Shown: in pieces, positions 6,019 to 11,060 of the stretch
Numbering within the stretch: position 1 is the first letter of the stretch
How the letters are laid out: the number at the start of each line of letters is the position of its first letter
Source of the DNA: a virus
Taxonomy: Duplodnaviria; Heunggongvirae; Uroviricota; Caudoviricetes
Strand: one strand, 5' to 3'
Virus record (IMG/VR): IMGVR_UViG_3300032053_000007
DNA length: 64,000 bases
The notes under the pieces: model-generated
The model's input: only the letters and a program-made list of their open reading frames with translations
What the model was told of the DNA's origin: nothing
Databases searched by the model: none
Program-made: the position numbers and the translations under genes

Positions 6019-6126
6019 ACTATCACTTTCATTAAATATTAATGTAATACTACTATTTAAATGTTATGGTTTTTCATAGAATTGAAACCATAACCTTTAA
6101 ATACTTGTTTTCCTATACCATCTAAT

Positions 6127-6290
6127 GCCGAACCGACAATCTATTATGACGATAGTAGATTTACTTGGGCGGTTTGACAAACCACGTTCATAAGCCCAAG
6201 TGCACTACCCCGTAGTGGTCTGGTCTTTGAGTGGGACTAGGGGCAAGCGAACGGCTTCCAATACTCATGGGAGAACCGAATCGGGTCGGC
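6127..6290 (+). ncRNA. Orphan multibranch structured RNA
   Basis: Own promoter (6087-6103); GCCGA/TCGGC closing stem; hairpins AATCTATTA/TAGTAGATT, ACTTGGGC/GCCCAAGT, CACTAC/GTAGTG; T-run after. Confidence 0.55.
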
Positions 6291-6371
6291 TCATTTTTAC
6301 CGCAACCTTTATATATGCGTAGTGCACCATCTATTAGTGTCGTAGTGAATATCAAAGGTGGTGGTAGCAGT

Positions 6372-6596
6372 ATGAAAATACGAGTATATATAAATTCAGA
6401 CCCTCGTTCATCTCATTTGTTCGGCAATATCGATAAAGTCATTGACGGTTCTGACAATGCATTGATTGATGGAAGTCGAAAACTTGTGCTGATGAGGAAA
6501 AAAGAAACTTCAAAAGATAGTTCTATAACCAGCAAAGACGTGTTGTATGATACTATCGCGGTTTTCAACCATTGGACATTTTGGCGACAAGTGTAG
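6372..6596 (+). CDS. Hypothetical protein
   Basis: ATG 6372 after promoter 6299-6315 and GGTGG RBS. Confidence 0.6.
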   Translation: MKIRVYINSDPRSSHLFGNIDKVIDGSDNALIDGSRKLVLMRKKETSKDSSITSKDVLYDTIAVFNHWTFWRQV

Positions 6597-6637
6597 AACC
6601 GTAAACTTTAAATATTAGTTCCCCCTTTATTAGTAAT

Positions 6638-6762
6638 GGTTTCGGGACGATTCGAAGTGGTCGCCTTTGGCGGCAACAGAGTCCATCCTTGAATCCGTGG
6701 GACATTCAATTTGCCTCAACTCGTGGACGTATTCCACGAAGCGGCGAAGCGGTGTCCCTCAC
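6638..6762 (+). ncRNA. Orphan structured RNA
   Basis: Own promoter (6598-6614); GGAC/GTCC and GGGACA/TGTCCC domains, CGTGGA/TCCACG hairpin; no ORF. Confidence 0.5.
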
Positions 6763-6832
6763 ATTAACTATTAAATTGAACATGTTGTTTCTACCGAAAC
6801 CTTTATATATTTGTTTGTGTATTATATCTATT

Positions 6833-7823
6833 AGCCCATAGACTACCTAGATGGTGTCAGCAAGGAAGCTATAGACGGGCAAGCCGAAGAATGAAATAGC
6901 CCTACTGGTCGAATGGTGTGTCGTGGGGAACTATACTCGCCAGCGTTCCCCGCACGGATGAGTTGACGCTCGATGAAGGTGGTTGAGTAACCACGCACAG
7001 TCTGTTGCGGTTAAGGACGTTGGAAAATATAGTCATAGGCTGAAAGCAGAGGGCATACGCTACTAGAGTGGGTCCGAATAGGGCAACTCTAGCCAGCTAT
7101 GCCCTCAGAGCGTCAGCCTGAGACAAATCATAGTCAAGGGCTAGGGGGCTGGATGATGAGAGTGAACAGCCATCTAGCAAGTAGGAGATGTCTCTCAATC
7201 TCTTATCCTAGCCCAAGACGTTTCATAGTCACGGGTTGGATAACCACAAACCCTCTGGTATTAGGCAGTAACGGGGAAGAAAACGTGTAGGTGCGGAACG
7301 TGCACAATATCCGCATCGATTTGGAATGCTCCCCGTAAACGTGAGAACCGCGCTGAACGGTGAATCCTGTCCAACCCATGACACTTTCACAGTATAGGGC
7401 ATTGGCTGTTAATCGAAAAGCCCATATGTTCGTAAACGCCGTGGGAAAAGCGGGGTCATGACCGCTAGAACCACGGTTGTTCTCAGCCTTTCATAGTCAT
7501 CGGCTGAATGTGAGTCCCAGATGAAACATCAAAAGGTGTCACGGAAAAATAGGCTACAGGAATGACTACGTGACGAGCAAATTAAGCCTATCTCCTTTGC
7601 CTGAAAGTGGGATGTGAATAGGTAATTCAGCCTTATGACACCAATGCGGGCTTGAAGGATGGAGATATGGCGTGAGACTTGGCTGGGGATGGAAATTACC
7701 CAGAGTGCCAGTACCGACCTATTTAGGTTTGGTGTCAGCGTATCGCCAGAAGGACATCGTAAGCGCATGGCTCTGTTCCAAGAGGTTGCGTTAACGGCGA
7801 AGCGATTCGCCCAAGCCCATAAC
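6833..7823 (+). ncRNA. Large (~1 kb) ornate structured RNA with repeated arms
   Basis: Single promoter (6793-6809), GC-richer than flanks, no credible ORF, four 8-bp long-range stems each preceded by ATAGTCA and followed by (T/A)GAC. Confidence 0.75.
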
Positions 7824-7884
7824 TCAACATGTTATTTCTACCGAAACATTTAAATACTTGATTAGCATTATACTATAACAACAA

Positions 7885-8049
7885 CGTGGTCTTAACCATG
7901 ATGGCAATAAGTCGTAGTCTCGTATTCGAGTATTGGACTTTTAATACGACAGTCGCCAAACCAGCAGACCACGGTAAGCGCGGAAGACAACAGTAAGACC
8001 CGTCAAGATTATCTCGACTTTTTGCCATCATCTGTGTCTTGCCGTGGTC
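7885..8049 (+). ncRNA. Pseudoknotted RNA at the head of the tRNA operon
   Basis: 7898-7907 pairs 8022-8031, 7909-7914 pairs 8015-8020, crossed by 12-bp 7967-7978/8038-8049. Confidence 0.6.
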
Positions 8050-8071
8050 GATTGCATTGGCATTTTGATAT

Positions 8072-8191
8072 AGTGGGTTAATCTATTTGGCTAAGGAATC
8101 AAGCCCTTGAAATCGAAAAGGGGGTTATGCCCCTGATGTCAATAGATAGGGATAGCTTGAGGAAGGAGTTCGATTCTCCTACCCACTACCA
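8072..8191 (+). tRNA. tRNA-Gln(UUG) with 43-nt BHB intron (8111-8153), C33
   Basis: A1:U72 acceptor AGTGGGT/ACCCACT-A-CCA; CCTT/AGGG central helix with two 3-nt bulges at 37/38. Confidence 0.8.
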
Positions 8192-8227
8192 ACTGACTTC
8201 AATCGATTTTCAACTGACTTCACAAAT

Positions 8228-8303
8228 ACAGGTATAGCTTAATGGATAGAGCCTCATGCTTCTAACATGAGAGATGGGGGTTCGACTCCCTTTACCTGTG
8301 CCA
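8228..8303 (+). tRNA. tRNA-Arg(UCU)
   Basis: Cloverleaf, loop CT-TCT-AA, CCA encoded. Confidence 0.93.
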
Positions 8304-8306
8304 TGT

Positions 8307-8378
8307 GCCGCTATGGTGTTAAGAGTAGCATGAGAGTTCTGTAAACTCTGGGTCCAGATGCAATTTCTGGTAGCGGCT
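8307..8378 (+). tRNA. tRNA-Thr(UGU), C33
   Basis: GCCGCTA/TAGCGGC, U73, loop TC-TGT-AA, T loop TGCAATT. Confidence 0.8.
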
Positions 8379-8381
8379 TTC

Positions 8382-8453
8382 GCTCCCATAATCTAACAGT
8401 AAGGAGCAGGGGTTTTCGCCCCCTGAGTTTGGGTGCAATTCCCAATGGGAGCA
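8382..8453 (+). tRNA. tRNA-Glu(UUC)
   Basis: GCTCCCA/TGGGAGC, loop TT-TTC-GC. Confidence 0.88.
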
Positions 8454-9466: not shown

Positions 9467-9470
9467 ATAT

Positions 9471-9546
9471 GGGGATTTGGTGTAACTTGGAAGCATCGGT
9501 GGCTTGGAACCATCAGGTGAGGGTTCAAATCCTTCTATCCCCACCA
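9471..9546 (+). tRNA. tRNA-Pro(UGG)
   Basis: Loop CT-TGG-AA, CCA. Confidence 0.9.
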
Positions 9547-9551
9547 ATCGC

Positions 9552-9627
9552 CCCTCTGTCGTCTAACAGACTAGGACCTTCGGCTGTAAACCGAATGATT
9601 CCTGTGCAACTCAGGACAGGGGGACCA
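9552..9627 (+). tRNA. tRNA-Tyr(GUA)
   Basis: Archaeal-type C1:G72, short variable loop, loop CT-GTA-AA, CCA. Confidence 0.92.
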
Positions 9628-9633
9628 ATCAAT

Positions 9634-9708
9634 GGATGCGTAGTGTAGCGGTCAACACACCAGCCTGTCACGTTGGAAGCGCGGGTTCGAATCCCGCCGT
9701 ATCCGCCA
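9634..9708 (+). tRNA. tRNA-Asp(GUC)
   Basis: Loop CT-GTC-AC, G73-CCA. Confidence 0.93.
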
Positions 9709-9751
9709 TAACCTTTATATAGCCGTTTGACATTAATATATTGGGATTAAA

Positions 9752-10363
9752 ATGGCAACTGATATGTGAATCCGAAAAGAGAATTCTACTATTTTGATTA
9801 CGTTAAGTGTTGCCAAAGGTTCTAATAATATTCCTGTAGTCAAACAGCTTAGACGAGAATGTAACACAGCTTCTAATATCAAAGATAATAATACTCGCAA
9901 AAAGGTCTTGAAAGCATTAAACAAACTAATAGTCGAAGTTTCACAAACTCTTGTTGAAGACGGCTATCTAATGTTTGCCGCTTATGATGGTGTCTGAACG
10001 ATTAGACCGCCTTTGCCAGTTACCAGAAACTTCTACGACTGTGGCAAGCGGTTTGAAATTGAGTATTTGAGAAGCCTCTACTCTAATAACCCAAAAATTG
10101 GTATAATTAATCTATCAACTAAAGAGGCTATTATCTCTATCCGAGAAGGTGAATTTGAAGCTGTAAAGTTAAGATTGACTTCTGGAATAGGCGGGCAACA
10201 CAAGAAAGGCGGCTCAAGTTCTGGAAGATTCTATAGAAAACGAGAAGAAGAAATTAACTTTTTCTTTAGAAAAGTCCATAATCGTTCCAGAGATTTCCAA
10301 GTTAACCGATGGGAAATTAGGGGAGACAAAGATATGGTGAAAAGGTATTCTTCATTTGATTAA
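9752..10363 (+). CDS. aRF1/eRF1-like release factor homolog (N and partial M domains) interrupted by two in-frame TGA; readthrough gene or pseudogene
   Basis: One frame from ATG 9752 with TGA at 9767-9769 and 9995-9997; TASNIKD, PP.PV..YDCGKRF (YxCxxxF), HKKGGSS at the GGQ position. Confidence 0.85.
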
Positions 10364-10410
10364 ACCAAAAGGTTTATATAGAGGTATTGACATATATTAA
10401 GGCTACCTAT

Positions 10411-10566
10411 GCGGGCGTAGGGAATCAGAAAACCCAGAGAACGAAAAGTCTGGATGGCTTAAATCTGGATGGCTCAAATCCAAGTCTGGATGGCTAAGAT
10501 TCATTCCCGATAGAGCAAACCCCTTGCTTAGTTGCTGTGGGAGTGCAAATCTCCCCGCCCGTACCA
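10411..10566 (+). tRNA. tRNA-Leu precursor with three tandem anticodon modules (UAA, CAA, AAG)
   Basis: GCGGGCG/CGCCCGT-A-CCA, D arm GGG/CCC, long variable arm, T arm; TCTGGATGGCT x3, each followed by a Leu anticodon. Confidence 0.7.
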
Positions 10567-10579
10567 TTAACTAAAATAA

Positions 10580-10653
10580 TGCGGGATAAGATAACGACAG
10601 TCAGTTGGACTCATAATCCAACAGCGACAGTTTAACTCTGTCTCCCGCAACCA
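10580..10653 (+). tRNA. tRNA-Met(CAU) (elongator/initiator/Ile2 not resolved)
   Basis: TTGGA/TCCAA stem, loop CT-CAT-AA, CCA; atypical T loop TTTAACT. Confidence 0.75.
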
Positions 10654-10793
10654 AAAGATTTATATAGTTGTTTTGTATTATATTTGTGGTAAGTGATTGA
10701 CATGATATTCGAAACTCTTCCTAATTGTCACGACTTGGGTATCAGTAGTCAGTCCACTTGTCAGTCGTCAGCCTAAATTTTTTATCCGTTTGT

Positions 10794-10881
10794 GGCAGGG
10801 TGGCAGAATCAGGTATTGCACCCGTCCTGAAAACGGTGTTCCCTTATGGGAATAGGGGTTCAAATCCTCTCCCTGTCGCCA
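10794..10881 (+). tRNA. tRNA-Ser(UGA), C33
   Basis: Long variable arm, G73-CCA, loop CC-TGA-AA. Confidence 0.88.
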
Positions 10882-10886
10882 TTGAT

Positions 10887-10975
10887 GGTAGGTTGGCTGA
10901 GTGGTTTAAGGTACTGGTTTGCTAAACCAGCGTTCCCATGTGGAACCGAGAGTTCGAATCTCTCACCTACCGCCA
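10887..10975 (+). tRNA. tRNA-Ser(GCU)
   Basis: Long variable arm, loop TT-GCT-AA, G73-CCA. Confidence 0.93.
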
Positions 10976-10985
10976 TTAACTTTGC

Positions 10986-11060
10986 GCGAGTATGCCGAAG
11001 TCTGGTTAACGGGGCGGTCCGCAAAACCGTTATTCGGCGGTTCAAATCCGCCTACTCGCT
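10986..11060 (+). tRNA. tRNA-Cys(GCA), C33
   Basis: U73, loop CC-GCA-AA. Confidence 0.87.

Follow-up and report, generated by a model that had tools for sequence, protein, structure and literature searches.

Large ornate RNAs, GOLLD and ROOL, adjoin the transfer RNA (tRNA) arrays of phages. Archaeal tRNA genes can be disrupted by non-canonical or multiple bulge-helix-bulge introns, and split and tri-split tRNAs exist with halves that are common to isoacceptors. Already known are tRNA-rich archaeal tailed viruses, recoded release factors in the Mimiviridae and large RNAs beside phage tRNA arrays. The archaeal tailed virus HGTV-1 carries 34 tRNA genes that together serve every amino acid but His, with one intron (PMC13532342). 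Mimivirus R726 contains a readthrough UGA at a Trp position in a virus that carries a tRNA-Trp, an arrangement that was read as autoregulation (Jeudy et al., 2012, PMC3521657). In bacterial prfB, which encodes RF2, a +1 frameshift at an in-frame UGA ties output to termination efficiency (PMC3521657). Here we describe an island at 6087–11060 of the virus record IMGVR_UViG_3300032053_000007, analysed as a single stretch of 64,000 nucleotides (the window). Structured RNAs, tRNA genes and a half-size homologue of archaeal release factor 1 (mini-aRF1) are grouped in it between the genes for ribonucleotide reductase (RNR) and DNA polymerase B (PolB).

With a probability that we put at about 0.7, the island is a hypervariable accessory region of independent promoter-plus-payload cassettes, all related to RNA or translation and including a recoded mini-aRF1 gene. 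Nine plus-strand copies of the motif AANNTTTAWATA (at 6092, 6304, 6603, 6798, 7845, 9710, 10369, 10655 and 11090) divide 6087–11100 into cassettes, the payloads of which are four structured RNAs, one small protein gene, 25 tRNA-like genes and mini-aRF1 (Table 1). The motif is a TATA box with an A-rich upstream element (TATA/BRE-like). The window contains 32 copies of it, where 1.5 would be expected, and those copies in and beside the island that were examined sit ahead of genes or RNA units in the correct orientation. This promoter motif, the bulge-helix-bulge tRNA introns and the aRF1-type factor argue for an archaeal host.

An aRF1 homologue with its own promoter had been placed inside the tRNA array by a preliminary description of this DNA, and it was found there, at 9752–10363, between tRNA-Asp and a tRNA-Leu-like element. 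The frame opened by ATG 9752 has 203 codons and contains in-frame TGA triplets at 9767–9769 (codon 6) and 9995–9997 (codon 82). The product matched Pfam eRF1_2 (eRF1_1 is recorded on homologues) and, in a profile search of the PDB, residues 31–210 of the 373 of A. pernix aRF1 (3agk; E = 2.5e-18) as well as eRF1. The AlphaFold model had a predicted local distance difference test score (pLDDT) of 94.6 and was matched by Foldseek to aRF1 (4af1) with E = 2e-14. Superposition on accommodated, ribosome-bound eRF1 (5lzu) gave a template-modelling (TM) score of 0.87 and a root-mean-square deviation of 2.5 Å over the N and M domains only; all structural matches were limited to these two domains, and the TM score normalized by target was 0.37–0.49.

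The stop-codon-reading signature is retained as TASNIKD (residues 39–45), whose aligned counterparts are TASNIKS in human eRF1 and the NIK motif in A. pernix aRF1, and the YxCxxxF motif is present as YDCGKRF (residues 95–101) in a column conserved throughout the family alignment. In the GGQ column, the window and the relatives labelled L001, L003 and L004 have GGS (residues 153–155, KKGGSSS), whereas many other mini-aRF1 clusters, like cellular aRF1, keep GGQ. The sequence GIGGQH (GGQ at residues 147–149) was considered as the catalytic motif and was discarded, as it is out of register in both the family and the PDB alignments. The C domain, which binds aEF1-alpha/eRF3, is absent, the protein ending at the equivalent of residue 210 of the 373 in A. 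pernix aRF1. Lacking this domain, the factor could not be delivered by aEF1-alpha and would have to enter the A site alone. The short N+M architecture is common to dozens of diverged clusters. No family for mini-aRF1 was found in PHROGs, no aRF1-like gene in 50,697 deposited phage and archaeal-virus records, and no paper on aRF1 genes in archaeal viruses in full-text literature searches.

The in-frame TGA codons were compared with the equivalent positions in relatives. L003 (aRF1 64% identical) has TGA at both; L001 (90%) has TGA at codon 6 and TTA at codon 82; L004 (53%) has TGA at codon 82 and a second in place of W187, a residue that is invariant elsewhere; and L006 has TGG at codon 82 with a further in-frame TGA upstream of its called start. 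The in-frame TGAs fall where other homologues carry Trp, recur at 52–64% protein identity and are accompanied by no frameshift anywhere. A search of 1.8 billion cluster representatives returned six diverged N-terminal fragments that end exactly at position 81 and about 16 C-terminal fragments that begin just past it. This pattern may be the view that a gene caller takes of a gene split by a conserved stop, and some of the fragments could be frameshift forms. The ratio of nonsynonymous to synonymous substitution rates (dN/dS) was 0.09–0.24 on both sides of the second stop; for codons 83–203 it was 0.094 against L001 and 0.23 against L003. All eight of the in-frame TGAs seen are followed by A, while the homologues with TGG have varied following codons. 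Programmed readthrough of UGA, with Trp inserted by a near-cognate tRNA-Trp, is the most economical reading of these data. The factor had been described previously as disabled, a term that fits only in part: GGS replaces GGQ and the C domain is missing, but the stops are conserved and purifying selection extends through both of them. Mini-aRF1 is accordingly best regarded as a recoded gene and not as a broken one.

The layout of the island was then followed through the relatives. L001 has the order RNR, two small open reading frames (ORFs), aRF1, Leu-like element, tRNA-Met, tRNA-Ser with an intron, tRNA-Cys, HNH endonuclease and PolB, and carries neither the 18-tRNA block nor any of the four RNAs. 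L007 and L008 (83–97% identical in DNA) carry the array, the Leu-like element, tRNA-Met and two tRNA-Ser genes, with tRNA-Cys in addition, which is truncated where the L008 piece ends; in both, the promoter after tRNA-Asp leads directly into the Leu-like operon, and no aRF1 was found by tblastn. The large RNA and RNA 5 were observed ahead of the array in L007 only. L009 (RNR 94% identical) carries RNA 1, the small ORF, an RNA 3 that differs, one additional ORF and the beginning of the large RNA. In L010 and L011 (RNR 74–77% identical) the RNR gene adjoins HNH/PolB, with no tRNA, no aRF1 and no island. In L004 and L005 (aRF1 53% identical) the aRF1 homologue has radical-SAM genes among its neighbours, and no tRNA is present over a distance of about 4 kb. 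No relatives were returned by further scans of viral contigs (with PolB, aRF1-alignment, Leu-like-element, tRNA-Met and 26-mer large-RNA patterns), by a metagenome scan with the aRF1 alignment or by scans of genome contigs with the aRF1 alignment and a 22-mer large-RNA pattern. Judged by their distribution in these relatives, the cassettes are swappable and the island is a hot spot for them, a mosaic and not one machine. In the few relatives observed, the large RNA travels together with the big tRNA block; the aRF1 cassette is not tied to that block.

The Leu-like element (10411–10566) was found in four genomes, those of the window, L001, L007 and L008, as a class-II tRNA body with A73 and CCA. 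Its acceptor, T and variable-arm stems are 100% paired in all four, with four compensating changes. The D-arm is separated from the variable arm by three GGAUGG-CU-NNN repeats in which NNN is UAA, CAA or AAG, with a fourth (CAG) in L001. The three triplets are cognate to the commonest Leu codons of the virus (CTT 0.28, TTG 0.20 and TTA 0.19). In the window, excision of about 51 nt at 26/27 would give a GAUGG-CUAAGAU-UCAUU arm; L007, L008 and L001 do not preserve its stem, and the excision corresponds to no bulge-helix-bulge. The sole strict bulge-helix-bulge pairs the GGCU of adjacent repeats, places the triplets in the bulges and would give a product with the loop GGCUNNN; it is conserved in the four genomes with differing outer helices. 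In a brute-force search of single excisions, no tRNA was accepted by ARAGORN at default settings. Double excisions gave mostly Leu tRNAs, but with second cuts that are arbitrary within the long variable arm. No splice scheme that was tried is valid in all four genomes. Two candidate schemes were rejected. The junction chosen in the preliminary description (a CCAG/CUGG helix with bulges AGA and AUG) has an outer helix of 1 bp only and leaves a mismatch in the anticodon stem, and a cut inside the anticodon (35/36) would yield UAG or CAG, matching rare codons.

Other readings of mini-aRF1 were weighed against recoding. Two in-frame TGAs, a missing C domain and GGS for GGQ could mark a decaying pseudogene, broken by two nonsense mutations and truncation, and a change from TGG to TGA is the easiest nonsense mutation. 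Decay would not be expected to leave the stops at the same positions at 52–64% identity with no frameshift, nor a dN/dS of 0.09–0.24 downstream of them, nor a short N+M form shared by dozens of diverged clusters, nor a gene with its own promoter motif and a confidently folded model. Because the stops are conserved in diverged relatives and dN/dS is low on both sides of the second, we do not take the gene for a pseudogene and consider decay extremely improbable. If, instead, UGA were read as Trp throughout, as in a code-4-like genetic code, with the aRF1 homologue as a UAA/UAG-only factor, the exact placing of the TGAs at Trp positions, one of them the invariant W187 of L004, would be accounted for, and recoded phages do carry release factors and suppressor tRNAs. 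A genome-wide test of TGA as sense, which covered the 64-kb window, makes this very unlikely: TGA ends 16 of the 81 ORFs, many of them in ATGA start–stop overlaps; long ORFs are not lengthened when TGA is translated as Trp; and a UCA anticodon is absent from the tRNAs. The only further same-frame pair, ORFs 52204–52728 and 52741–53907 (174 and 388 amino acids, sharing a frame across TGA-GCG-TGA), was put down to coincidence, as close homologues consist of the second ORF alone and the two are separate genes in relatives. No sign was seen in the window that termination is re-tuned beyond this gene, as had been proposed before; no other gene needs readthrough.

At the level of the island, recoded mini-aRF1 and its neighbours had been described as one integrated system, that is, RNAs, tRNAs and release-factor homologue as a co-adapted, interdependent machine that re-supplies and re-tunes decoding and termination. 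The components of this proposal survive, in that the tRNAs and the aRF1 homologue are real, a supply role is plausible and the RNAs are orphans; the interdependence is not supported, as the parts occur independently in relatives. All payloads concern RNA or translation and stand together in 5 kb, the aRF1 cassette immediately precedes the Leu-like/Met operon in the window as well as in L001, and in L003 the aRF1 homologue is followed by a promoter-driven structured RNA and a putative tRNA-Ser. The co-occurrence test had been set in advance, however, and it went against integration: the array occurs without aRF1 (L007/L008), aRF1 without the 18-tRNA block and the four RNAs (L001) or without a nearby tRNA (L004/L005), the locus without any island (L010/L011), and no other window gene requires UGA readthrough. 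One interdependent machine is accordingly unlikely. Cassettes that are gained and lost separately work alongside each other and not as one obligate system. Rather more room is left for a different view of one payload, although we still doubt it: the Leu-like element could be a tRNA-shaped scaffold and not a precursor, displaying Leu-anticodon-loop mimics or stacked bulge-helix-bulges, as a decoy for a host nuclease that cuts tRNA-Leu or as a source of small circular RNA, and the island would then have no Leu tRNA. The failure of every single excision to give a default ARAGORN tRNA, the loss of the window's canonical anticodon stem in L007, L008 and L001 and the strict GGCU bulge-helix-bulge, kept in four genomes with the 'anticodons' as bulges, speak for a scaffold. 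The class-II body, which has A73, CCA and compensatory substitutions in its acceptor, T and variable stems, the CU-NNN-R context of triplets cognate to the three commonest Leu codons, the mostly Leu identity of double-excision products and the position of the element as sole Leu candidate in an otherwise complete set speak for a precursor.

Several observations weigh against programmed readthrough and the roles given to the cassettes. Ordinary TGA stops in the window, too, are most often followed by A (5 of 16), and context alone is no proof of leakiness. None of the island tRNAs has a UCA anticodon. The viral tRNA-Trp has no Hirsh-type feature, position 24 being, by eye, a C paired with G11. 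No conserved RNA structure was found 3' of the stops. The change of Gln to Ser in GGQ need not abolish hydrolysis and may leave it in place in this clade; replacement of the glutamine of GGQ is less damaging than replacement of its glycines, and N+M fragments of eRF1 keep release activity in vitro. The match between anticodons and codon usage, given below, is expected of any AT-rich virus with tRNAs of its own, and codon compensation and evasion of host defence are not separable by it. Two further candidates were examined at the stops and rejected. A hairpin 7 nt after the second TGA (9995–10060; −19.9 kcal/mol, z = −2.9) was considered as a readthrough stimulator, but it is present in L001, which has a TTA codon, and absent from L003 and L004. 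Selenocysteine was set aside, as the homologues have Trp and no structure is conserved after the stops.

Table 1. Features of the island and of its borders, with positions in the window.
Feature	Coordinates	Strand	Remarks
HNH endonuclease gene	5563–6018	−	at one island flank
Promoter 6092–6103 and structured RNA 1 (~6127–6290)	6092–6290	+	multi-branch fold, 5'/3' closing helix
Promoter 6304–6315 and small protein gene 6363–6596	6304–6596	+	77 amino acids
Promoter 6603–6614 and structured RNA 3 (~6636–6758)	6603–6758	+	
Promoter 6798–6809 and multi-arm RNA 6833–7823	6798–7823	+	~1 kb
Promoter 7845–7856 and structured RNA 5 (~7868–8066)	7845–8066	+	tRNA-operon leader
tRNA-Gln(UUG)	8072–8191	+	43-nt intron 8111–8153 at 37/38; C33; CCA encoded
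19-tRNA block	8228–9708	+	0–6 nt spacing; ARAGORN, Rfam tRNA model
Promoter 9710–9721 and mini-aRF1 gene 9752–10363	9710–10363	+	203 codons
Promoter 10369–10380, Leu-like element 10411–10566 and tRNA-Met 10580–10653	10369–10653	+	
Promoter 10655–10666, leader 10685–10793, tRNA-Ser(UGA), tRNA-Ser(GCU) and tRNA-Cys	10655–11061	+	
HNH endonuclease gene	11341–11925	−	at the other island flank

The four promoter-driven non-coding RNAs that had been reported were recovered as four structured units, none of which matches Rfam. A search of 5900–11300 with the 4227 Rfam families gave, beyond tRNA, no family that is meaningful even at E <= 5, and no covariance model of GOLLD, ROOL or other described large RNAs matched the 1-kb RNA. 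The minimum free energy of RNA 1 was −63.5 kcal/mol (z = −3.45), that of RNA 3 −57.1 kcal/mol (z = −3.16) and that of RNA 5 −67.4 kcal/mol (z = −5.33). The 1-kb RNA gave −360.7 kcal/mol on the plus strand against −323.8 kcal/mol on the minus strand, and its arms begin after CAUAGUCA-like junctions. Covariation was tested on two sequences for each RNA, a thin basis. RNA 1 has few substitutions with respect to L009; in three pairs both partners differ with pairing retained, and no pair is lost. RNA 3 has only its 5' part in common with L009. The L007 homologue of the 1-kb RNA is about 745 nt long; its 5' 160 nt are nearly identical and whole arms are swapped or missing, and in the shared arm 7022–7130 five of 32 pairs have compensating changes and none is broken. 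RNA 5 is kept in L007 with no informative covariation. The pattern, thin as it is, is that expected of structured RNA. The four are probably real RNA genes that would be transcribed and processed; they are orphans. No promoter motif lies between RNA 5 and the tRNAs, so that the simplest reading of RNA 5 is as a leader of the tRNA operon.

The unit behind the promoter at 6304 is a protein gene and not an RNA. A GGTGG ribosome-binding site lies upstream of it, and the L009 homologue (121 amino acids) has an identical N-terminus and conservation at the protein level; no Pfam family was found for the 77-residue product. Two other stretches were noted. The leader of the Ser-Ser-Cys operon (10685–10793) is 93–97% identical in L007 and L008, is unstructured (z = −0.75 against shuffles) and contains several GTCAGT-like repeats. 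In L003, the aRF1 homologue is followed (745–1190) by a promoter motif and a GC-rich stretch of about 370 nt with an AUAGUCA junction like those of the 1-kb RNA, and then by a second promoter motif and, at the contig end, an apparent start of tRNA-Ser(UGA) that was seen by eye and is not called by ARAGORN.

Of 25 tRNA genes claimed earlier, 22 are firm and a Thr gene and the intron-bearing Gln gene can be added; the Leu-like element, a putative tRNA gene, makes the twenty-fifth. ARAGORN called 22 tRNAs at default settings, the Rfam tRNA model placed 20 above the gathering score, and Thr(UGU) (8307–8378) was detected at a relaxed ARAGORN threshold only. The main block has the order Arg-UCU, Thr-UGU, Glu-UUC, Glu-CUC, Ala, Gly-GCC, Gly-UCC, Ile-UAU, Lys-CUU, Lys-UUU, His, Phe, Asn, Arg-UCG, Trp, Val, Pro, Tyr and Asp, which is identical in L007 and L008. 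The close spacing described before was confirmed, with intergenic gaps of 0–6 nt across the main block, and the estimate of about ten genes without encoded CCA proved to be exactly ten, the other 15 having it. Coverage of all 20 amino acids, also claimed, holds only if the Leu-like element matures. The Gln gene has a strict bulge-helix-bulge with an outer helix of 6 bp, a central helix of 4 bp and an inner helix of 3 bp and cuts after 8110 and 8153; its L007 orthologue has another intron and a compensated anticodon stem (CAAGC/GCTTG to CTAGC/GCTAG). Both the tRNA genes and the aRF1 homologue are thus real, and their type is archaeal.

Codons cognate to the anticodons of the set include AGA (0.47 of Arg codons), ATA (0.40), CAA (0.76) and GAA (0.77), and also AAA (0.68), CCA (0.56) and ACA (0.42). 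Since these are the A-ending codons that the virus itself prefers, a role in tRNA supply is plausible. The sole Ile tRNA (8776–8852) has the anticodon UAU and reads AUA, which makes up 40% of the viral Ile codons. Most archaea read AUA with an agmatidine-modified CAU tRNA, and outside this virus a tRNA-Ile with UAU is a typical feature of Nanoarchaeum and Korarchaeum; the viral tRNA would bypass the modified one. Some unusual features were recorded. C33 replaces the near-universal U in three viral tRNAs, Thr-UGU (a gene that is identical in L007), Gln-UUG and the intron-bearing Ser-GCU of L001 (5057–5212), and several others (Met and the Leu-like element) are without G18G19 and a canonical T-loop. 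In L008, tRNA-Arg(UCG) (895–1300) is split near the anticodon by an insertion of about 370 nt with its own promoter motif and a Cys-rich ORF, and tRNA-Trp (1310–1495) has an intron of about 110 nt. The window has neither of these interruptions; the tRNA introns of the lineage are therefore mobile.

The window encodes terminase-like and portal-like proteins, a family-B DNA polymerase, a class-II-type RNR, a dCMP deaminase and HNH endonucleases, and the terminase, portal, PolB and RNR genes point to a tailed virus. The GC content is about 38% and climbs to 45–48% over 6–10 kb. PolB is at best only about 23% identical to that of deposited phages. The RNR gene (3776–5542) has many viral relatives, on contigs of 100–180 kb; its nearest named cellular homologues are in metagenome-assembled genomes of Candidatus Aenigmatarchaeota, at about 60% identity and with an extra ATP-cone, which may serve as a weak lead to the host. 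HNH genes stand at the same island borders in L001 and L010, and those at the borders may help with cassette turnover. The ORF at 52741–53907 contains about 13 repeats of D-x-(V/I)-F-K-K-(L/F)-G-I.

The cassettes can be assembled into a tentative account. One polycistronic operon (the leader RNA and 20 tRNAs) and two small tRNA operons would provide about one tRNA per amino acid, with U34-biased anticodons reading the A-ending codons preferred by the AT-rich virus. While the genes themselves are observed, their supply role is what we infer; such a supply would sustain viral translation when host tRNAs are ill-matched, depleted or attacked. Mini-aRF1 would be a stand-alone A-site factor made up of a stop-codon-reading N domain and an M domain. 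Because UGA sits at Trp positions, the full-length protein would be made only when ribosomes read UGA as sense. The likeliest reader would be a near-cognate tRNA-Trp, which the virus encodes too and which would presumably insert Trp. Synthesis that depends on readthrough would couple the output of mini-aRF1 to the efficiency of UGA termination. With GGQ changed to GGS in its clade, the factor probably binds stop codons and releases peptides poorly or differently. If it acts on UGA, its own UGA codons would give negative feedback, and binding without release by the GGS form could make the loop positive. The stops are conserved, the fold is that of aRF1 and the gene is under purifying selection; readthrough, Trp insertion and feedback would follow from these.

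Two bolder proposals may be stated, and it is improbable that either is true. In one, a self-amplifying switch, GGS mini-aRF1 would occupy A sites with UGA without release and outcompete host aRF1, readthrough of UGA to Trp by the viral tRNA-Trp would be raised, and the two UGAs of the gene itself would make the effect self-amplifying. In the other, one gene would give several tRNAs, the Leu-like gene yielding tRNA-Leu isoacceptors UAA, CAA and AAG by alternative bulge-helix-bulge processing.

A half-size aRF1 that lacks the C domain, has conserved UGA at Trp positions and is widespread in uncultivated archaeal viruses would extend stop-codon bypass in genes of this kind to a third domain of life, and would offer a natural minimal A-site factor for studying how the archaeal ribosome chooses between termination and readthrough. 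Three orphan structured RNAs and the unexplained tRNA-Leu-like gene are the most open parts and are suited to follow-up. A new integrated system is not established by the island.

The island was finally compared with the known systems. Like GOLLD and ROOL, the 1-kb RNA is a multi-arm structured RNA gene immediately upstream of a viral tRNA array. It differs in having no Rfam match at E <= 5, an archaeal-type promoter and arms that are swapped or lost between close relatives, and no sign of common ancestry or architecture was seen. The Gln gene, with its textbook bulge-helix-bulge intron, and the Leu-like element, a body with alternative anticodon segments and bulge-helix-bulge-like motifs, resemble disrupted archaeal tRNAs (reviewed in PMC4090602); unlike split tRNAs, in which separate genes are joined in trans, the Leu-like pieces would be tandem segments of one transcript. 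Balon, the bacterial aeRF1-like hibernation factor, is an A-site binder of the aRF1 fold and was a structural match of mini-aRF1 (8v9j and 8rd8, E ~1e-9). Balon does not release peptides and is not known to have the NIK and YxCxxxF motifs. The viral protein keeps both motifs, and its TM score is 0.43–0.46 to Balon against 0.87 to eRF1. HGTV-1 is likewise a tailed virus of archaea, large and with a tRNA set that is nearly complete and includes an intron-bearing tRNA; the function of the tRNAs is putative in both viruses. The present virus belongs to a different lineage (GC 38%, PolB ~23% identical to any deposited phage), and its island adds a release-factor homologue and large structured RNAs.

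RF2 and mini-aRF1 have in common that their own mRNA contains a stop codon on which the factor may act. The protein families are unrelated, and the viral gene would use in-frame readthrough and not a +1 frameshift, with no Shine-Dalgarno stimulator; the action of its product on UGA is putative. The closest known genes are Mimivirus R726 and Megavirus mg280, which similarly encode a viral factor of the eRF1/aRF1 type with internal stops and a UGA that is conserved between relatives (PMC3521657). In R726, too, the readthrough UGA stands where homologues have Trp, and tRNA-Trp is encoded by both viruses, the one described here lacking the Hirsh-like D-arm feature. R726 keeps GGQ, whereas the present factor has GGS, is half the size and has no C domain. 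Its host would be an archaeon rather than amoebae, and its gene has two in-frame stops to be read through and no frameshift.

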